From Promethearchaeota archaeon (GTDB lineage: Archaea > Asgardarchaeota > Lokiarchaeia > Sigyniarchaeales > SOKP01): a DNA stretch of 64,000 nt. Location: positions 128,001 through 192,000 of the forward strand of contig JBHLNF010000006.1 of NCBI GenBank assembly GCA_048937405.1. The letters are read 5' to 3'. Below are positions 403 through 11,519 of the stretch, piece by piece. Every line of letters starts with the position of its first letter. Position 1 is the first letter of the stretch. The notes beneath the pieces are model-generated. The model was not told the DNA's origin. It worked only from the letters and a program-made list of their open reading frames with translations, and made no database searches. Both the position numbers and the translations under genes were made by a program.

Positions 403-3400
403 ATGTCAAATTTCCAGAGTGATGTTTTGGTTATAGGAGGAGGAATCTCTGGTATACAAGCATCCCTAGATTTAACAAAATTAGGATTTAAGGTATATTT
501 AGTTGAAATTAAACCAACTATTGGCGGAACGATGGCACAATTAGATAAAATATACCCTACGCTTGATTGTAGTTTATGTATCCTAGCACCAAAAATGGTT
601 GATGTGTATAGAGATCCAAATATCAAATTGTTAACTTATTCATATGTTAAAAAAATCGATGGAACTGCTGGAGATTATACAATTACAGTTATTAAAAAAC
701 CAAGATATATAAATGAAAATATCTGTAAGGGATGTGGTGATTGTGAAAATGTTTGTCCAGTTAGAGGAATCCCTAGTGATTTTGATACTAATTTAAAAAC
801 CCGAGCAGCTGCTTATATTCCTTTTCCATCATCAGTACCTCCAGTATATCTTATTGATGAATCAAGATGTTTATATCTAAATCATCAAATATGTGGACTT
901 TGTGCCAAAGTTTGTAGCGCAGATGCTATAGATTTTTTTCAAAAACCAGAAGAAATAACTCTAAAGGTAGGAGCCATTGTTATTGCAACAGGAACAAGTC
1001 AACAAATGCCAGAAGTTTACAAAAATTTTGCTGGGGAATCTCCCAATGTTTTGTCTAACATGCAATTTGAACGCCTATTATCCGCAAATGGACCTACTGG
1101 AGGGCAAATATTAAGATTAGATGATAAAAAACACCCTGATTCAATCGCATTTATTCAATGTGTAGGATCTCGAGATTTTCATCATCCTGAATGTAAAAAA
1201 TATTGTTCAGCGATATGTTGTATGAATTCGGCTAAAGAAGCAATTGTATGCAAGGAACATAATTCAAATATAGAATGTTATATTTTCAATACAGAAATAA
1301 GAGCAAAAGGTAAAAATTTTAATGAATTTATTGAAAAGAGTAAAGATGAATATGATATTAAATATGTAAATGGTCATGTTTCATATATTAAAGAAAATTT
1401 AGATAATGGAAAATTAAGATTATATTATGAAGATATTAATAAAGGTACAGTTGGTACTTTTGAAGTTGATATGGCTGTATTAGCTAGTGCCTTGTCTCCA
1501 GCTCCCTCTTATTATGAATTTTTAAAACAACACAATTTAGATAAGAATCATTTAGGATATATTCGTGAAGAAGATATAAAGTTACTTGAGAAAAAGAATG
1601 TATTTGTAACTGGTAATTCACGTAAACCTAATGATATTCAAATGGCTGTTGCAGATGGTTCTGCATGCGCCGCTAAAATAAGTGAAAGATTTTATCCTCT
1701 AAGATTTAAAAATATACAGAAAGTTAAGTATCCTCCTGAAATACCAGTAAGTTTAGAAGATGAGCCTCGCGTAGGTATATTAGTTTGCCAATGTGGGATA
1801 AATATCGGAGGTATTGTTGATGTTCCTAAAGTAGTAGAGTATGTCTCAAAATTACCATATGTAGTCCATGTTGAAGAAAATATGTATTCATGTAGTTCTG
1901 ATTCCCAAGAACTATTTAAAAAATTAATTTTGAAACATAAACTCAATAGATTCATTGTTGCGTCTTGTACTCCTCGAACACATGAACAACTTTTTAAGAA
2001 TACTCTCAGAGAGGTTGGATTGAACCCGTATTTATTTGAATTAGTTAATATAAGAAATCAAGCTTCTTGGGTACATATGAAGGAACCTGAAAAGGCTACT
2101 AAAAAGGCTTGTGATTTAATTAGAATGTATTTAGCCAAAGTAATTAATTTAAAACCATTAGAAATGATTAAAGTTAAAGTTGAAAAATCAACAATGATAA
2201 TCGGTGCTGGAATATCAGGTATAACTGCTGCTCATAATTTAGCAAATCAAGGATTCAAAGTTTATCTTATCGACAATAAATCTACTCTTGGTGGTAGCGC
2301 ACTAGAGTTTGTTGATCTATATTATATAGCTATTACTAAAAATGAAATTTTGCAGCATATTGATGATTTAAAAAATAATTCAAATGTTAAAATTTTATTT
2401 AACACAGATATTATTGATGTTCAAGGTTATGTGGGAAATTATAAGGTAAAAGTTAAAAATACAAAAGATAATTCTGAAGAACAAATAATAAAGGTTGGCA
2501 CTATAATAGTTGCTACAGGAACTAAGCAGATTAAAACAATTAAATGGAAAAGTTTAGCAGAAAAATATCCTAATCGCGTACTTACTCAAACAGAACTAAC
2601 TGGAATGAAAGATGAGGAAGTTCCTAAGTTTAAAGATGTTACTATAATATTATGCGTAGATCAAAGAAAAGATAAATTAAATAACGCAAGTTATATAAAA
2701 ACATATTGCTCAAATATATGTTGTGGAGTAGCCTTAAAAAATATAGAAAAGTTATTGAAAATTAATCCTGATGCGCAAATTCATATTTTATATAGAGAAC
2801 TTCAATTTTCAGATTTAAATGCCGAAAATTTATGTCGAGGGCTTCGAAATAAAGCTACTTATGAAAGATATCAATCGATTGATGATATCAAAATTATTAG
2901 TATAAATAATCACTTTCATATTAAGTATAAGAATATAAGTGCTCAAACGGATATTGAGTACGATACCGATTTATTAATATTAGCAACTCCTAACGTTCCT
3001 ACTAAAGATACTGAAAGATTATCAAAAATGTTAAAAGTAACAACAAATAAAGATGGATTTTTCTTAGAAGCTGATGCGAAACTCAGGCCAATAGATTTTG
3101 CTACAGAAGGAATCTTTCTTTGTGGTGGTGCTCATTGGCCCAAATGGATTCAAGAGAGTATCATCCAAGCATATGGCGCAGCAGGGAGAGCCGCAATAAT
3201 AATGGTGAAAGGAGAAATAGAAACAGAATGCATTACATCTCATATAAATGAAGAAAAATGTATTGGATGTGGTAAATGTATTGAGGTTTGTCCATACAAT
3301 GCAATAGAATTAATTGAGAGTAATAAACAAATGGGTCTATATAGCATGAAGTTAAGAAAAGCGCATATAATTAAAGCACTTTGTAAAGGATGTGGATCAT

Positions 3401-3546
3401 GTGTTACAGAATGTTCCGTTGGAGCCATTGATCAGAATCATTTTAGTAAATTCCAAATTAGTAAAATGATTGATTTAATGTCCGATATAGATATAATAGA
3501 GTATGAATCTATTACATTTAGGAGGAACTATGTTGTTGGAAACTAA
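403..3546 (+). CDS. hdrA: Large tandem-module heterodisulfide reductase subunit A-like flavoprotein (Cys form)
   Basis: Two GxGxxG FAD motifs, DCSLCILAP, ferredoxin inserts, QCVGSR..YCSAICC, internal VCQCG/ASCTPR module, EADAKLRP, C-terminal 2x[4Fe-4S]. Confidence 0.93.
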   Translation: MSNFQSDVLVIGGGISGIQASLDLTKLGFKVYLVEIKPTIGGTMAQLDKIYPTLDCSLCILAPKMVDVYRDPNIKLLTYSYVKKIDGTAGDYTITVIKKPRYINENICKGCGDCENVCPVRGIPSDFDTNLKTRAAAYIPFPSSVPPVYLIDESRCLYLNHQICGLCAKVCSADAIDFFQKPEEITLKVGAIVIATGTSQQMPEVYKNFAGESPNVLSNMQFERLLSANGPTGGQILRLDDKKHPDSIAFIQCVGSRDFHHPECKKYCSAICCMNSAKEAIVCKEHNSNIECYIFNTEIRAKGKNFNEFIEKSKDEYDIKYVNGHVSYIKENLDNGKLRLYYEDINKGTVGTFEVDMAVLASALSPAPSYYEFLKQHNLDKNHLGYIREEDIKLLEKKNVFVTGNSRKPNDIQMAVADGSACAAKISERFYPLRFKNIQKVKYPPEIPVSLEDEPRVGILVCQCGINIGGIVDVPKVVEYVSKLPYVVHVEENMYSCSSDSQELFKKLILKHKLNRFIVASCTPRTHEQLFKNTLREVGLNPYLFELVNIRNQASWVHMKEPEKATKKACDLIRMYLAKVINLKPLEMIKVKVEKSTMIIGAGISGITAAHNLANQGFKVYLIDNKSTLGGSALEFVDLYYIAITKNEILQHIDDLKNNSNVKILFNTDIIDVQGYVGNYKVKVKNTKDNSEEQIIKVGTIIVATGTKQIKTIKWKSLAEKYPNRVLTQTELTGMKDEEVPKFKDVTIILCVDQRKDKLNNASYIKTYCSNICCGVALKNIEKLLKINPDAQIHILYRELQFSDLNAENLCRGLRNKATYERYQSIDDIKIISINNHFHIKYKNISAQTDIEYDTDLLILATPNVPTKDTERLSKMLKVTTNKDGFFLEADAKLRPIDFATEGIFLCGGAHWPKWIQESIIQAYGAAGRAAIIMVKGEIETECITSHINEEKCIGCGKCIEVCPYNAIELIESNKQMGLYSMKLRKAHIIKALCKGCGSCVTECSVGAIDQNHFSKFQISKMIDLMSDIDIIEYESITFRRNYVVGN

Positions 3547-4009
3547 AAAAGCAAGTCAATTTGAATATGAACCTAATATTCTAGTATTTTGTTGTAATTG
3601 GTGTAGTTATGCGGGAGCTGACTTAGCGGGGGTTTCGAGATTCCAATATCCACCAAATATTAGGATTATTAGAGTTATGTGTTCTAGTAGAGTTGAGCCC
3701 ACGTTTGTTTTAAGAGCATTTAATAATGGAATAGACGGAGTGTTAGTTATTGGTTGTCATATGGGTGACTGTCATTATATAAAAGGATTCAAATATACAC
3801 AAAACAGAATGGACCATTTAAAAAAGATAATTAAATATATTGGAATTGAAGAAGAACGATTTGAACTACATTCTATTTCTGCAAGTGAAGGAAAACAATT
3901 TTCTGAGCTAATTACAGATTTTACAAATAAAATTATTGATTTAGGAGAATTGAAAATTCCAAAAAAATCTGGAATAATTGAATTAGATTATAATATCAAA
4001 AAAAATTAA
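3530..4009 (+). CDS. mvhD: MvhD-like [2Fe-2S] subunit (Cys form)
   Basis: FCCNWCSY, RVMCSSRV, GCHMGDCHY; start placed at ATG 3530 after an AGGAGG SD. Confidence 0.93.
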   Translation: MLLETKKASQFEYEPNILVFCCNWCSYAGADLAGVSRFQYPPNIRIIRVMCSSRVEPTFVLRAFNNGIDGVLVIGCHMGDCHYIKGFKYTQNRMDHLKKIIKYIGIEEERFELHSISASEGKQFSELITDFTNKIIDLGELKIPKKSGIIELDYNIKKN

Positions 4010-5148: not shown

Positions 5149-5212
5149 TCAAGATATATTTATCAAATTAATATATTTTGGATTAATGAAAAAATTTATT
5201 ACATATTTTTTT

Positions 5213-5283
5213 TCTGAAAACCCATGCGAGGGGTTAGTCTCCTCTCAACTATCATTTTTCTGAGAAGTTCATTCTATTTCAGA
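5213..5283 (-). promoter_or_regulatory. SECIS-like element in the 3' UTR of Sec-containing hdrA
   Basis: Minus strand: UAG-A-AUGAA-CUUCUCA-GAAAAAUGAUAGU-UGAGAGG-AGA-CUA, i.e. AUGA/GA core, 7-8 bp helix, A-rich loop, just after the stop; outer helix UCUGAAA/UUUCAGA. Confidence 0.72.
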
Positions 5284-7320
5284 TTATATCTGGTAAGGAG
5301 CTAATGATTCAATCTTTTTCCAAATAAGCTCAATAGAATCAATATATTCTTCTTTATACTCGAGCTCAGTATTACAAATTCCTTTTATTTCTTCGATAAT
5401 TTGTCTATCTCGATAATATTTAAGATCAATTGCTCGAGCTGGACATGATGATATACAAACTCCACACCCTTTGCATTTTAATTCATCTACTTCCGCAATA
5501 TTCTTTCCATTGACTTTTATAGCCTTATAATTACATAACTTTTCACATCTACCGCATCCAACACAGAGATCCTCGTCAATTTCAGCAATTATTAATTCTT
5601 GAGTTATTGTATCTTTAGAGAGTAAAGTTGATGCTTTGCTTGCAGCAGCTAAAGCAGTTGATACTGAATAAGGGATGTTTTTAGGTCCAACAGCACAACC
5701 ACATATATAGATTCCTAGGTTTTTAGTTTCTTGGGGTTTTAAACAACCATGAAATTCAGTTAAAAATCCATTTATATCTTTAGCCACATTTAAAGTTTCA
5801 ATTAATTTGGCTGATGATTTAGAAGGAACCATTCCTGTAGATAATACTATTAAATCAGCTTCCATATTAATGAAATCATTTGTTAAAGTGGAAGAAGCAG
5901 TAACTTTTATTTTCTTAGTGTTTTGATCCTCTCTAATATCTCCTACTTTTCCTCGAATCATTATTATACCCGCTTCTCTCGCTCTTCTATAATATTCTTC
6001 ATTCCCTTTATCCCATGTTCGTATATCTATATAAAAAATAACTATTTCTATATCGGGATATTCACTTTTTAATAATTGAGCATTTTTAAGAGCAACATTA
6101 CAACATACTCCTGAACAGTAGTTATTTCCCTTTAAAGATCTTGAACCTACACATTGAATCATAACAACAGTTTTAGGGATTTTTCCATCAGAAATTCTAT
6201 AAACATGACCTCCTGTTGGTCCAACAGGACTTAATATGCGTTCTAATTCTATTTGAGTAATAACATCAGGATAAATACCATATTGATATTCATTAGTTTC
6301 TATAATTGGATATTCATCCCATCCTGTAGCAATAATTACCGCACCGACCTTTACATCTATATATTCTGTCTCTTGTTCTAAACTAATGGCTCCAGCAGGG
6401 CAAATTCTCTGACAATTTTTACATTCTATGCATGCTTGTTTATCAATTAAGGCAATTTTAGGGACAGCTTGAGGAAAAGGAATGTAAATTGCACCTCGCT
6501 CACCAATACCCCTATCAAACTCACTAGGTACTTTTACTGGGCATTTAGTTGTACATAAACCACATCCAGTACATTTGCTTTCATCAACATATCGAGGATT
6601 TTTCTTTATTTTAACATTATAATCCCCAGGGATGCCATTAAATTCAACAATATCACTATACGTATATAAGTTGATGTTAGGATGTTTTGATGTATTAACC
6701 ATAATAGGGGCTAAAACTCATATAGCACAATCGTCTGTAGGATAAATTCGATCCAATTGTGCCATTTTTCCGCCAATTGTGGCTTCTTTTTCAACTAAAT
6801 GCACATTAATTCCCTGATTTGCTACATCCAACGCAGCATTCATTCCTGCAATACCCGCACCTATTACTAATACTGCCTTTTCTACTGGAATTCTTTTATA
6901 AGGTATAATCTCTAATTCTCTGGCACGATTTATCCCTGCTTGTATTAGTCTAATAGCTTTTTCAGTAGTATTTCGTTTATTTCCTGATTGAGTAAATGAA
7001 CATTGTTCACGGAGATTAACCATTTGCAAGAAATATGGGTTTAATCCTGCTTCAATTAATACATTTCGGTATGTGGATTCATGAATTTTTGGTGAACAAG
7101 CTGCAACAACAACACGATTCAAGTCTAAATCTAAAATGTCATTTTTAATAATATTTTGTCCTGGATCGCTACAAGTAAAATCATTTACTTTAGCAACAAT
7201 TACATTTGGAATTGCTTCAACATAGTCTCTAATAAGATCACAATCAATGCTATTGCTTATATTAACTCCTCATCTACAAATATATACTCCGATTCTTACT
7301 ATGGTCTGTAATTCAGACAT
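5284..7320 (-). CDS. hdrA: Selenocysteine-containing HdrA, 678 aa, U17 and U201 (joins the 6718..7122 and 5284..6702 ORFs)
   Basis: Single frame from ATG 7320; TGA at 7270-7272 (YICR-U-GVNI, cf. VCHCGINI) and 6718-6720 (DDCAI-U-VLAP, cf. DCSLCILAP) both align to conserved Cys of the paralogues in this window; downstream SECIS-like hairpin. Confidence 0.9.
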
Positions 7321-7500
7321 ATTATCAACCTTTTAAAATGTCACCAAATTCATTTCTTTATTAAAAATCAAAATTCTAATTTATTGAGAAAATTTACTTA
7401 AAAGTAATTATAATTTTTTCAAAGACTATTTTCCTATTATTTAGTCAGGTAAGAACAATTTAAGAGATTTGAAAAGAAAAATTTAAATTATTTTGACAAA

Positions 7501-7520
7501 TTTGATAGTCATTTATCAAA
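7501..7520. promoter_or_regulatory. Inverted repeat TTTGATA-N6-TATCAAA, candidate operator in the divergent hdrA/frhB promoter
   Basis: Perfect 7-bp arms; single instance in AT-rich DNA. Confidence 0.3.
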
Positions 7521-7752
7521 CAATTTTTTGGTTTTGATCTCTACTTGATCTGATTCCCAAACTATATTTATTATTTATATAATAAGATATAAGGTATTGG
7601 ATCATCTTATTTTATCAATATCGACAATTAGATAGATAAAATAGATCATATTTAAATATCTTGACAACAATATTAATCATGGTAAATAAAAGAATTATTA
7701 AAATTATCTTTAAGATTTTTAAAATTACAAAAAAAATTGGTGATATTAAAAA

Positions 7753-8871
7753 ATGAGTATAAAGAGTTTTAATGATTTAATTGAAGAGGTCCATAAACCT
7801 GGGATTTGCCAAGAATGTGGAGGATGTGTTAGTTTTTGTAATGCATTAGAATATGATGTGATTGGGTTTGTTAAATCTAATTCCCCTCCAGAATATATAA
7901 ACAAGGATAAGTGCCTCGGGTGTGGAATATGTTATATTATTTGTCCACAAACTCACGTTTTAGATGACGATCTCAATAACGAATATAAATTTTCAGATTA
8001 TATTAAAATGCCATTAGGATATGTCAATTCGCTTTACTCATGCCAAGCTACAGATAGTGAATTTTTGAAACATGGAACAGATGGCGGAGTTGTAAATTCA
8101 ATTATTAATTATTTAATTGAAAAAAAAATAATTGATGGAGCAATTGTGGCAAAAACAAAATTGCCTTTCTCAAGAGAAGCTACTATAGTTGAAAATAAAG
8201 AAGAATTAATTGAGGCTTCAGGTATAAAATTAGACATATCTCCACAATTAGATAGTGTTCAGAAATTTCATACATATACAAATTCTTTACCTAAATTAAA
8301 AACTCAAAAAGTTAGGAAATTAGCATTAGTAGGGACGCCATGTCAGATTTACACTATTAGATGTATGCAAAGTTTAGGTATTATTCCCTCTGAAAATATA
8401 GAAATTTGTTTAGGATTGTTTTGCTACGAGAATTTTTTCTTTGATAAGAGAAAGGTTGAGAAATTTGAGAAAGATTTTAATATAAAATTCAAAGATATTG
8501 AAAAAATAAACATTAAAGAAGATTTAATTGTTAATTTAAAGAATAATAAAATTATTCATATACCATTTAACAAACTAAAGGATTATATGCGTAAAGCTTG
8601 CTCTGTATGTAAAGATTTCACTAATATTTATGCCGATATTTCTTTTGGAGGATTAGGATCCCCCAAGAAATTTACAACTGTAATCACTCGTACTAAAAAG
8701 GGAGAAAATATTTTTAATAAAGTTTTAAATTCAGGGATTATCAAAAGTTTAAAATTAGATATAAATTCCAAAAATGAAATAAAGGAAAAAATTACCCAAT
8801 TTTCTCTCTCAAAATTAAAACGAACAGAACAAAGTTTGAATCATAAATTATCAACGCAAGACCATAATTAA
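7753..8871 (+). CDS. FrhB/FdhB/FpoF-family F420-binding subunit with N-terminal ferredoxin
   Basis: CQECGGC, CLGCGIC..CP, DGGVV, GTPCQ, GLFC, DISFG; paralogue of 4024..5148. Confidence 0.88.
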   Translation: MSIKSFNDLIEEVHKPGICQECGGCVSFCNALEYDVIGFVKSNSPPEYINKDKCLGCGICYIICPQTHVLDDDLNNEYKFSDYIKMPLGYVNSLYSCQATDSEFLKHGTDGGVVNSIINYLIEKKIIDGAIVAKTKLPFSREATIVENKEELIEASGIKLDISPQLDSVQKFHTYTNSLPKLKTQKVRKLALVGTPCQIYTIRCMQSLGIIPSENIEICLGLFCYENFFFDKRKVEKFEKDFNIKFKDIEKINIKEDLIVNLKNNKIIHIPFNKLKDYMRKACSVCKDFTNIYADISFGGLGSPKKFTTVITRTKKGENIFNKVLNSGIIKSLKLDINSKNEIKEKITQFSLSKLKRTEQSLNHKLSTQDHN

Positions 8872-8969: not shown

Positions 8970-11519
8970 ATGGATATTTATTCAATTTTATCTCATCCAT
9001 TTAGGAGGAAAATTTTATTTCTTTTAGATAAAGAAGGATATATCCCTTATACTGAATTAATGGAAAAACTTAATTTAGATACAACTGGACAATTAAATTT
9101 CCATCTTAAAAAGATTGGATCATTAATAGATAAAGACAATAAATCATATTTTCTTACAGAAGATGGTAAACGTGTTTTAAAAATTATAAATCTTAATAAA
9201 AGAATTTTATCGGGAGAATATATTGATGAGTATTTTGATTCAAAAGGAAGCGAAATAAGTCGGATTGGAGTAATTATTTGTAATTGCAATACAGAAATTT
9301 CAAATGTAATTGATATTAAAGCACTTGAAAATTATGTGAATAAATTAAAAAAAGTAGTCTCGGTAAAAATATTTGAAAATCTTTGTCAGCAAAAGAATTT
9401 CGAGAAAATTCAAAATTGGGTAAAAGATAATTTTATAAATAAAATAGTAATAGCTGCTTGTTCTCCCAAAACTCACCAAAATCTTTTTGAAAGAATTTTT
9501 GAAGATATTATTGATCATACAAATATAGAATTTGCTAACATTAGAGAACAATGTTGCTGGGTACATCAACCGCAAATAGATCAAAATTTCCCTTTACTTT
9601 CTCTAGAAAAAGCGAAATTATTAATTGAAGCAGCTGTAGAACGCGTAAATTTTCAAAAAAAATTAAAAGTAAAGAGAGTTGAAGTTGAGAAAAGTTGTGC
9701 TATTTTAGGTGGTGGAATTGCAGGCATAACTCTCGCTTTAAACTTAGCACGATCCGGAATAAAAGTATATCTTATTGAAAAATCACCAACATTGGGGGGT
9801 AAGGTAGCTAGATGGCACAAAATTCATAATATGGGCGATTGTTCAATATGTTTTATTTCTGAATTAATAGCGGAATTAGTTAATGAAAAGAATATAAAAA
9901 TATATACAAATACAGAAATAGAGAACGTATCAGGAGAAGTAGGGAATTTCACAATTAATATGATTAAGAAACCTCGGTATGTTGATGTAAAAAAATGTAC
10001 TGGATGTAAACAATGTATATCTGTTTGTAGTATAGAAAAACCAAATCAATATGAATTTGGGTTAAGCAATCGAAAAATAATATATATTCCATTTATACAT
10101 TCTTATCCTTATGCACCTTTAATTGATGAGGAAGATTTAAAAAATTGTCTTAATTGTAAGATTTGTGAACGTGCTTGCGTAAATAAAGCAATAGATTTAA
10201 GTCAGAAAGAAGAGAAAATTGAAATAAGAGTCGGTACTAAAGTTATCGCTATTGGATCTGATTTTTATAAAGATTTAAAAGAATATCATTATAATCCCAA
10301 AAAAAATATAATAACATCACCAGAATTTGAGCGCCTTTTAGCTTCTGATGGTTTAACTGAGGGAAAACTCAGAAAGATATCAGATAAAAGTCCCGTAAAT
10401 TCGATTTCAATAATTCAGGAAGTTGGTCCATCAAAATATCTAGCAGAGTTCTCTGAAAATTTAGCAGAAAAATATATTGAGGATGTTAAAATAAGAAATC
10501 CTCATTGTGAAGTAAATGTTTTCTATGATTTAAGTAAATTAAAGAATAGGGATGAAATTTTGTTAAGATCTACAAACCCTAGATTTATTTATGCCAATAA
10601 AATTAGTATTAAATCTACTAAGGATGTGAATTACGTTATTGCTGATAACATAGAATTTCAAAGCGATTTGATAGTTTTAAATATAAAATATATCCCCAAT
10701 GAAGATTTAAAAAATCTTAGACAATATATGGATTTTACACTAAATTTCAATGGATTTATGAGTGAAGACACGTTAGCATCGGGAATTTATGGTGTTGGAA
10801 CTATCTTTGGTCCTTTAAATTATAAATCCACAATTTCAACAGTTAATAATGTTGCTTTAAAAGTAATTTCATTACTTTCTAAAGAATATTTAATAGCAGA
10901 ATTTACTGGAATTGAAATAAATGAAAATAGATGTGGTTTATGCGGTTTATGTTTAAAAATATGTCCTTATAATGCCATCACAATAGAGGGAGATAAAATT
11001 ACCATAGATAAATTCAAATGTAAAGGTGGCGGTACATGTGCTAGTATCTGTCCTACCAATGCTATAGATCTAAACATAGATACTTCTGAGAAAATCTTGA
11101 GAACAATTAGAATTTTCTCAAAATTCAGATCAAGTCCAAAAATCATTGCCTTTTGTTGTGCTTCTTGTGGATATGCTGCTGCGGATGATGCAGGGCTTAA
11201 GAAAATTTCCTATACTCCAAATATTTTCATCATAAGAGTGCCCTGTACGGGTCGTATTGATACAAATTTTATTATTAAATCATTTGAACTCGGTTTCGAT
11301 GGAGTTATGATAATTGGTTGCAGACAAGATGCTTGTCGGTATATAGATGGAGTAAAAAAGATAGAAAACAAAATTAGACTATTAACAAATGTTATAGCTA
11401 CAAAGTATAAAGATCGAATAATCCTTGAACATTTGAATGCTGTTGAAGGAAATAAATTTGCTGAGATTGCCAATAAATTCTATAATAACCTATTGGAGGA
11501 GATTAAATATGAAACCTAG
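8970..11519 (+). CDS. ArsR-like winged-helix - degenerate HdrA - MvhD fusion protein
   Basis: N-term LSHPFRRKIL..YTELMEKL..TGQLNFHLKKI..YFLTEDG (wHTH); ICNC, AACSP, REQCCWVH, GGGIAG, ferredoxin motifs (HdrA); FCCASCGY, RVPCTGR, GCRQDACRY (MvhD). Confidence 0.85.
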   Translation: MDIYSILSHPFRRKILFLLDKEGYIPYTELMEKLNLDTTGQLNFHLKKIGSLIDKDNKSYFLTEDGKRVLKIINLNKRILSGEYIDEYFDSKGSEISRIGVIICNCNTEISNVIDIKALENYVNKLKKVVSVKIFENLCQQKNFEKIQNWVKDNFINKIVIAACSPKTHQNLFERIFEDIIDHTNIEFANIREQCCWVHQPQIDQNFPLLSLEKAKLLIEAAVERVNFQKKLKVKRVEVEKSCAILGGGIAGITLALNLARSGIKVYLIEKSPTLGGKVARWHKIHNMGDCSICFISELIAELVNEKNIKIYTNTEIENVSGEVGNFTINMIKKPRYVDVKKCTGCKQCISVCSIEKPNQYEFGLSNRKIIYIPFIHSYPYAPLIDEEDLKNCLNCKICERACVNKAIDLSQKEEKIEIRVGTKVIAIGSDFYKDLKEYHYNPKKNIITSPEFERLLASDGLTEGKLRKISDKSPVNSISIIQEVGPSKYLAEFSENLAEKYIEDVKIRNPHCEVNVFYDLSKLKNRDEILLRSTNPRFIYANKISIKSTKDVNYVIADNIEFQSDLIVLNIKYIPNEDLKNLRQYMDFTLNFNGFMSEDTLASGIYGVGTIFGPLNYKSTISTVNNVALKVISLLSKEYLIAEFTGIEINENRCGLCGLCLKICPYNAITIEGDKITIDKFKCKGGGTCASICPTNAIDLNIDTSEKILRTIRIFSKFRSSPKIIAFCCASCGYAAADDAGLKKISYTPNIFIIRVPCTGRIDTNFIIKSFELGFDGVMIIGCRQDACRYIDGVKKIENKIRLLTNVIATKYKDRIILEHLNAVEGNKFAEIANKFYNNLLEEIKYET

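Follow-up and report, generated by a model that had tools for sequence, protein, structure and literature searches.

A predicted two-selenocysteine HdrA-type gene with its own lokiSECIS in a Promethearchaeota genome

Does a locus that annotation lists as two separate protein fragments hold one intact selenoprotein gene? We examined this question for an HdrA-type gene (HdrA, heterodisulfide reductase subunit A; hdrA below) in a 64,000-nucleotide stretch of DNA, hereafter the window, from a Promethearchaeota archaeon (GTDB lineage Archaea; Asgardarchaeota; Lokiarchaeia; Sigyniarchaeales; SOKP01; assembly GCA_048937405.1, contig JBHLNF010000006.1, positions 128,001 to 192,000 of the forward strand). 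An earlier reading of the letters and their open reading frames (ORFs), made without database searches (the sequence-only reading), had taken the gene to be a hidden selenoprotein with two in-frame UGA codons, and our analysis supports that interpretation. We consider it very probable that the locus is one intact gene for a bifurcating flavoprotein of the HdrA type, that both UGA codons specify selenocysteine (Sec) by way of a single lokiSECIS, a eukaryote-like Sec insertion sequence (SECIS), and that the gene derives from an HdrA-VhuD-SECIS tandem by loss of VhuD.

One reading frame with two in-frame UGA codons

When TGA is read as U, positions 7320 to 5284 of the minus strand translate into a single frame of 678 residues closed by TAA. 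As the sequence-only reading had described, this frame starts at ATG 7320 and departs from genetic code table 11 only at the TGAs of codons 17 and 201; the observation is confirmed. A run of 678 codons without TAA or TAG is far beyond chance at 29% G+C. Under table 11 the gene falls into ORFs of 472 aa (5284..6702) and 134 aa (6718..7122), with codons 1-66 left upstream of both. The split in annotation that had been anticipated is indeed present: public gene calls on this contig list the 472-aa and 134-aa products as separate proteins, and a near-identical fragment in public gene calls carries only the name '4Fe-4S binding protein'. The ratio of nonsynonymous to synonymous differences (pN/pS), pooled over all pairs of 15 orthologues, was 0.175 for codons 1-16 (an estimate that samples only 16 codons), 0.166 for codons 18-200 and 0.207 for codons 202-678. 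Values of ~0.17-0.21 before, between and after the TGAs therefore indicate selection on one continuous reading frame.

The conservation of the two sites was surveyed by a six-frame search of 41 related genomes. Codon 17 is TGA in 26/30 aligned homologues and Cys in 4/30, and in Methanococcus HdrA (9sfi_A) the residue aligned with U17 is the second Cys of C-Y-C. Codon 201 is TGA in 29 of the 31 aligned homologues, the two with Cys being the window's own HdrA paralogues, and U201 aligns with the X that marks Sec197 in 9sfi_A. In other genomes of the genus, the 14 nearest orthologues, at 78-85% identity, each span 678 codons and keep TGA at precisely codons 17 and 201; both sites are TGA in a second paralogue group (~75% identity) as well. 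More distant paralogues (L045, L049 and L051) carry Cys at site 17 and Sec at site 201, that is, a Sec/Cys pair. Site 17 belongs to the four conserved Cys/Sec positions of the N-terminal domain (15, 17, 50 and 75). Cys does occupy both sites in the other HdrA paralogues of the window, as the sequence-only reading had claimed: an 849-aa protein (8970-11519) has C-N-C and C-S-I-C, and a 1047-aa fusion (403-3546) has C-S-L-C in the first of its halves and, in the N-terminal-type domain of the second, C-Q-C-G. The proposed comparison of UGA and Cys among orthologues was thus run, with UGA kept in the orthologues and Cys in the paralogues. Across the 41 genomes HdrA paralogues are many per genome, and a large share of them have 1-5 in-frame TGAs; HdrA-like matches number 14 in this genome and as many as 17 in its relatives, and several of them contain 2-5 TGAs.

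Pfam, NCBIfam and PDB sequence searches indicate that the predicted product is a full-length HdrA-type protein. Residues 9-651 matched M. maripaludis 9sfi_A with 689 bits and 5odc_A with 686 bits, and motif and profile searches placed a Rossmann motif for flavin adenine dinucleotide (FAD) or NAD at residues 149-187, together with ferredoxin motifs. The domain order is an N-terminal iron-sulfur (FeS) domain, a thioredoxin-reductase-like FAD domain, and inserted and C-terminal ferredoxin domains. The NCBIfam matches were to HdrA2 (816 bits; cut-off 1100) and to two HdrA models (617 bits, cut-off 1300; 595 bits, cut-off 1400), so that the HdrA equivalog cut-offs were not reached; there is no hdrBC next to hdrA, and the host, a Promethearchaeota metagenome-assembled genome, is not a methanogen. 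By these comparisons the product does not appear to be subunit A of a CoB-CoM heterodisulfide reductase in the methanogen sense; its working would be HdrA-like.

Two alternatives concern the integrity of this frame. In the first, only UGA201 is decoded, with translation starting downstream of codon 17 (e.g., at TTG codon 67) or with UGA17 ending a short leader peptide; the resulting HdrA would have one Sec and an incomplete N-terminal domain. UGA17 does lie ~2.0 kb from the SECIS and very close to the start, and ORF callers begin the 134-aa fragment at TTG 7122. But codons 1-16 show purifying selection like the remainder of the gene, the N-termini of solved HdrA structures match the segment R-I-G-V-Y-I-C-R-U-G-V-N residue by residue, translation from codon 67 would leave the N-terminal cluster domain with only one of its four conserved Cys/Sec residues, and no ATG occurs from codon 17 to ~codon 100. 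The distance is also within precedent, since in published Loki HdrA-VhuD units one SECIS serves as many as six UGAs within ~2 kb (PMC4989117). We regard this alternative as very unlikely. The fragmentary public gene calls, and the name '4Fe-4S binding protein' given to a near-identical fragment, would suit a second alternative, a decaying pseudogene whose TGAs are true stops and whose pieces are non-functional. It is slightly less likely still, given TGAs at identical codons in 15/15 orthologues with no other stop and no frameshift, pN/pS of ~0.2 throughout, a SECIS conserved with covariation, and the position of both TGAs in columns that are Cys or Sec family-wide.

Some orthologues (L033 at G002:C2:317963-319996, L032 and L030) go beyond two TGAs. 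One has four, the two extra TGAs replacing Cys260 and Cys297, i.e., the fourth Cys of ferredoxin motif 1 and the first Cys of motif 2, which ligate the same cluster if the usual 2x[4Fe-4S] wiring holds. A further TGA stands at Cys407 in a second orthologue and at codon 112, in a non-Cys column, in a third.

The lokiSECIS element and the selenocysteine machinery

The sequence-only reading had both Sec codons served by a single 3' element, and one lokiSECIS is found directly after the hdrA stop (Table 1). Its minimum-free-energy (MFE) fold gives the same helices as the comparative model (z -2.1). When 15 and 22 homologous elements were aligned, the helices paired in 93-94% of cells, and slid controls reached no more than 61%. 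Compensatory changes occur at 6-7 pairs with a covariation score above all 500 shuffles, a control that overstates significance because the sequences are related, the slid-partner control being the fairer one. For the upper helix (alignment columns 20-28 with 40-48) the paired share is 97%, and 3 of its pairs show compensatory change; in the window its basal pair is A-A, leaving 8 bp. Positions A16, U17, G18, A19 and A50 of the alignment are invariant; at column 49 most orthologues have A where the window has G, AUGA_AA being a core variant noted previously (PMC11227280). The element matches the published lokiSECIS in its AUGA_GA or AUGA_AA core, 9-bp stem and 11-nt loop with AAAAA.

A covariance model (R1) built from the SECIS alignment was run on the window and the genome. 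In the window it scored the hdrA element at 94.5 bits, the only match below E 0.1. In the genome it found 8 sites, each located from 28 nt before to 62 nt after the end of an ORF with an in-frame TGA; the ORFs at the other sites are three HdrA-VhuD pairs, a VhuU-like ORF and three small ORFs. Directly beside either UGA, a bacterial-type SECIS hairpin was looked for and no fold was better than shuffles (z -0.2 and -0.3), which excludes such an element immediately downstream of each codon. Scans of the window with Rfam gathering cut-offs and with ARAGORN found nothing, and a scan for sigma-70 promoters and intrinsic terminators was uninformative in an archaeon.

Several smaller observations concern the element and its relatives. 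The three small ORFs ahead of R1 matches (G000:C19:94850-95179 (+), C16:26147-26500 (-) and C7:578500-578868 (+)) encode 81, 66 and 83 aa with one in-frame TGA each, one of them in a C-Q-P-U motif, and are probably small thiol-oxidoreductase-like selenoproteins. The extra 3' hairpin (CC[C/U], a UUGCA-like loop, [G/A]GG) is present in all seven strong lokiSECIS elements of the genome (that of the window and L150-L155) and shows some covariation (CCC/GGG vs CCUU/AAGG); it is absent from the text of both Asgard SECIS papers (PMC4989117, PMC11227280). In two orthologues (L033:1418-1501 (-) and L036:1418-1501 (-)) the TAA is mutated to TTA and the frame ends at the UGA within the AUGA of the SECIS core, so that, unlike in eukaryotic type I elements, the lokiSECIS's own UGA is the stop codon; a SECIS-core UGA acting as stop has been reported for Loki VhuU.1. 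A switchable 3' untranslated region (UTR), with a 5' UCUGA pairing to UCAGA inside the SECIS helix, was considered and rejected: UCAGA is confined to the window copy, with UCAAA, CUUAA or UCGAA at that position in orthologues, whereas the lower helix UCUGAAA/UUUCAGA covaries.

Table 1. Features of the hdrA locus; positions are those of the window
Feature	Position	Strand	Remarks
HdrA-type flavo-iron-sulfur protein gene	5284..7320	-	678 codons, TAA stop at 5286-5284, two Sec codons
ATG start	7318..7320	-	M-S-E start at the same position in 15/15 orthologues; 16 codons ahead of first TGA
UGA codon 17, predicted Sec of N-terminal C-x-U motif (C15-R-U17)	7270..7272	-	~2.0 kb upstream of SECIS core
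UGA codon 201, predicted canonical HdrA Sec, D-D-C198-A-I-U201 (C-x-x-U)	6718..6720	-	adjoins FAD; ~1.45 kb upstream of SECIS core
5' intergenic region, presumed promoter	7321..7752	-	common to divergent FrhB-like gene (7753-8871 +)
lokiSECIS (eukaryote-like), 84 nt	5204..5287	-	starts at hdrA stop codon
lokiSECIS lower helix UCUGAAA/UUUCAGA	5283-5277 with 5219-5213	-	from alignments and MFE fold
lokiSECIS kink-turn core	AUGA 5272-5269, GA 5239-5238	-	flanks upper helix
lokiSECIS upper helix	5268-5260 with 5248-5240	-	8-9 bp
lokiSECIS apical loop, 11 nt, beginning AAAAA	5259-5249	-	
lokiSECIS extra 3' hairpin AACCC...GGGUU	5234-5229 with 5225-5220	-	between core GA and lower helix

A search of the genome (4.47 Mb in 29 contigs, 29% G+C) for the Sec machinery, the other check that had been proposed, found a tRNA-Sec, PSTK, SepSecS, an EFSec-like factor and a Sec-containing SelD. 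SepSecS scored 475 bits to TIGR03531 (cut-off 225), SelD has a single in-frame TGA within K-I-H-G-U-S-C, and the EFSec-like GTPase scored 232 bits to SelB vs 137 bits to EF-Tu. A whole-genome Rfam search for tRNA-Sec returned only ordinary tRNAs (Gly-UCC and Arg-UCU), below the cut-off. The gene was located by a scan beside SepSecS and comparison with intronless orthologues: it lies just upstream of SepSecS (G000:C7:230424-230580 (+), equal to L020:15424-15580), and is a 93-nt tRNA split here by a 34-nt D-arm intron and a 30-nt T-loop intron (orthologues in 24/24 sampled genomes of the genus). Spliced in silico, it is called tRNA-SeC(tca) by ARAGORN, with a 9-bp acceptor, a 7-bp D stem, a 4-bp T stem and a long variable arm, and an intronless orthologue scores 62 bits to Rfam RF01852 (cut-off 47). 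EFSec lies ~6 kb upstream of tRNA-Sec on the opposite strand, a layout also reported for Lokiarchaeum. Within the genus the tRNA-Sec has none, one or both of the introns, and that of Lokiarchaeum was reported with the T-loop intron only; the gene escapes standard tRNA finders. With introns allowed, ARAGORN found only 14 tRNA genes in the whole genome, for which a completeness of 100% is given; the majority of tRNA genes probably carry interruptions at non-canonical positions or escape recognition in some other way.

Stop codon usage bears on a further alternative, in which UGA is read through without Sec, either by genome-wide TGA reassignment or by near-cognate insertion of Cys or Trp. TGA closes 236/1643 long ORFs (14%), about as many as TAG, and is therefore a normal stop, which rules out genome-wide reassignment. 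Sec-independent Cys insertion at UGA occurs under selenium starvation in other systems. For this gene such read-through has no specific support and is about as improbable as the pseudogene, since in-frame TGAs are confined to genes that are followed by a SECIS match, a complete Sec pathway is encoded and no stable hairpin stands beside either UGA.

Locus layout and probable loss of VhuD

The next gene downstream of hdrA, FrhB-like and on the opposite strand, is convergent with it; the neighbours of hdrA are FrhB-like and MvhD-like genes. A tandem vhuD or frhD immediately downstream and sharing the SECIS was not found at the window hdrA, where the SECIS comes directly after hdrA and no vhuD follows on the same strand. 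This differs from what has been described. According to Mariotti et al. in 2016 (PMC4989117), every Loki HdrA gene is followed by VhuD with the sole SECIS after VhuD, and in a 2024 Asgard study hdrA and frhD were always neighbours (PMC11227280). The tandem arrangement is found elsewhere in this genome: a 75%-identical paralogue (G000:C28:546443-548434) consists of HdrA, then a two-Sec VhuD, then a SECIS that is homologous to the window element over all 84 nt, lower helix and extra hairpin included.

Among 74 hdrA loci from species-representative genomes, the SECIS lies 0-12 nt after hdrA in 36 and 433-491 nt after it, with VhuD between, in 28. In the hdrA tree the stand-alone genes group as a single clade, with an SH-like support of 100, that branches from within the tandem genes, and the flanking FrhB-like genes, including the divergent one, are syntenic in most stand-alone loci. 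The missing tandem vhuD is a feature of layout, not of the protein family. The simplest history, judged from these comparisons, would be that the tandem unit was duplicated and that a single vhuD deletion then moved the SECIS against hdrA.

One more unit of the tandem type lies ~13.5 kb beyond the end of the window (G000:C19:205061-207600 (-)), where an HdrA upstream of a two-Sec VhuD and SECIS seems to be interrupted by a frameshift: an N-terminal part of 124 aa contains three U, and a part of 557 aa, read in a different frame, contains one. It could be a pseudogene, an assembly error or a case of recoding.

Proposed mechanism and related systems

In the proposed mechanism, an mRNA would run from a promoter in the 5' intergenic region through the SECIS, which would recruit an EFSec-Sec-tRNA complex for the decoding of UGA17 and UGA201 ~2.0 and ~1.45 kb upstream of its core. 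Decoding would rely on the cell's own Sec system, i.e., the two-intron tRNA-Sec(UCA), PSTK, SepSecS, the Sec-containing SelD and the EFSec-like factor. Both distances fall within the ~2-kb SECIS span proposed for Loki HdrA-VhuD units (PMC4989117). The SECIS, once shared in an ancestral tandem, would now serve HdrA alone after VhuD was lost.

Several points weigh against this reading. Selenium incorporation and UGA read-through are themselves predicted here from sequence. The top match to a PSTK-type kinase (154 bits) and the best match to an EFSec-like factor both fall below the NCBIfam equivalog cut-offs. The tRNA-Sec is recognised only once both introns are removed in silico, and its intron junctions were set by alignment to intronless orthologues, with no demonstrated splicing motif. 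The hdrA tree behind the layout history was built with FastTree only and rooted on the more distant paralogues.

In the protein, U201 would be the second residue of a C-x-x-U motif with C198 beside the bifurcating FAD, equivalent to Sec197 of M. maripaludis and Cys205 of M. marburgensis. U17 would take the second position of C-x-C in the N-terminal domain, the one with the mobile 'shuttle' [4Fe-4S] cluster. In M. maripaludis HdrA, density joining the Cys-Sec pair was read as a possible selenylsulfide relay, and in M. marburgensis Cys202 and Cys205 bind an unknown ligand between the MvhD cluster and FAD (PMC13580544). Cys197 has been cited as a ligand of the partner protomer's N-terminal cluster (PMC9012536). 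The place of U201 by FAD, this ligand role and the place of U17 in the shuttle-cluster domain suggest that both Sec residues probably lie on the path between FAD and the shuttle cluster. The redox role of each Sec is likewise putative, and the FrhB-like and MvhD-like neighbours are the putative physiological partners. An attempt to equate U17 with the first VhuD Sec through homology of the HdrA N-terminal domain to MvhD was dropped (BLASTP E 0.22).

Three further readings are rather doubtful when taken jointly: that a clade of at least 36 species-level genomes broke the HdrA-VhuD-SECIS unit and kept the SECIS for HdrA alone, that the lokiSECIS of the genus is a three-helix element whose extra hairpin is a possible contact for an archaeal SECIS-binding factor, and that U17 and U201 may meet. 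No SBP2 homologue is known in Lokiarchaeota (PMC4989117). If true, a meeting of U17 with U201 of the partner protomer in the conformational cycle would bring a Se-Se or Se-Fe contact into the low-potential branch of bifurcation.

Multi-Sec HdrA proteins are established in this group. The sequence-only reading had called a second Sec at the N-terminal C-x-U site less usual; it is in fact not unusual in Lokiarchaeia, and more than 130 published HdrA sequences have it. A 2016 paper reported multi-Sec HdrA from Lokiarchaeota, with the canonical position always among its five possible Sec sites (PMC4989117), and the 2024 HdrA sequence file, in which Sec is written as X, has 92 sequences with C-R-X-G-V-N, 33 with C-E-X-G-V-N and 8 with C-Q-X-G-V-N, as well as 10 with A-I-X-V-L-A-P-I-M-V, the signature of the orthologue group of the window hdrA (PMC11227280). 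Both the kind of gene and the two specific Sec sites are therefore already known. The locus resembles the Asgard systems of these two papers in combining the canonical C-x-x-U Sec with Sec at other conserved Cys positions, in having one eukaryote-like SECIS for several UGAs over ~2 kb, and in the EFSec ~6 kb from an intron-bearing tRNA-Sec. Unlike the published Asgard hdrA-vhuD/frhD units, the window hdrA has no vhuD and has the SECIS at its own stop, a layout seen in 36 species-level genomes.

Similarity to the HdrA/VhuD selenoproteins of Methanococcales and Methanopyrus (M. maripaludis Hdr-Vhu-Fwd, PDB 9sfi; PMC13518236) extends to full-length homology, domain order and the match of Sec201 with Sec197. 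The methanogen HdrA, however, has a single Sec with Cys at the C-x-C site, whereas the window HdrA has two; it also comes with an archaeal GAA_A-type SECIS, an HdrBC partner and CoM-S-S-CoB reduction, in contrast to a host that is not a methanogen. With eukaryotic type I SECIS elements the window element shares the AUGA/GA quartet, an upper and a lower helix, an A-rich apical loop, a 3' UTR location and distant action on several UGAs, but it sits at the stop codon and has the small extra 3' hairpin.

The importance of the locus is mainly one of annotation, and the two-Sec hdrA opens no new question; the role of Sec at the HdrA sites is already under discussion for the methanogen enzymes (PMC13518236, PMC13580544). 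Gene callers cut this gene and many of its sister genes, and inventories of Asgard redox enzymes are understated unless Sec is modelled. The locus adds a well-supported case in which two UGAs, 1.45 and 2.0 kb distant, depend on a single SECIS. The modest addition is the layout: an HdrA gene can have a SECIS to itself instead of sharing one with a VhuD downstream, which corrects a generalisation in the literature, and no new kind of system is involved.

A last observation concerns the 1047-aa fusion of the window (plus strand). Its two HdrA units are complementary, with C-x-x-C only in the first half and an N-terminal-type FeS domain opening the second. Fused HdrAs of that pattern in anaerobic methanotrophic archaea (ANME) and Moorella have been proposed to be built-in heterodimers (PMC9012536). 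The stop of the fusion gene overlaps the start of a Cys-type MvhD (3503-4009).

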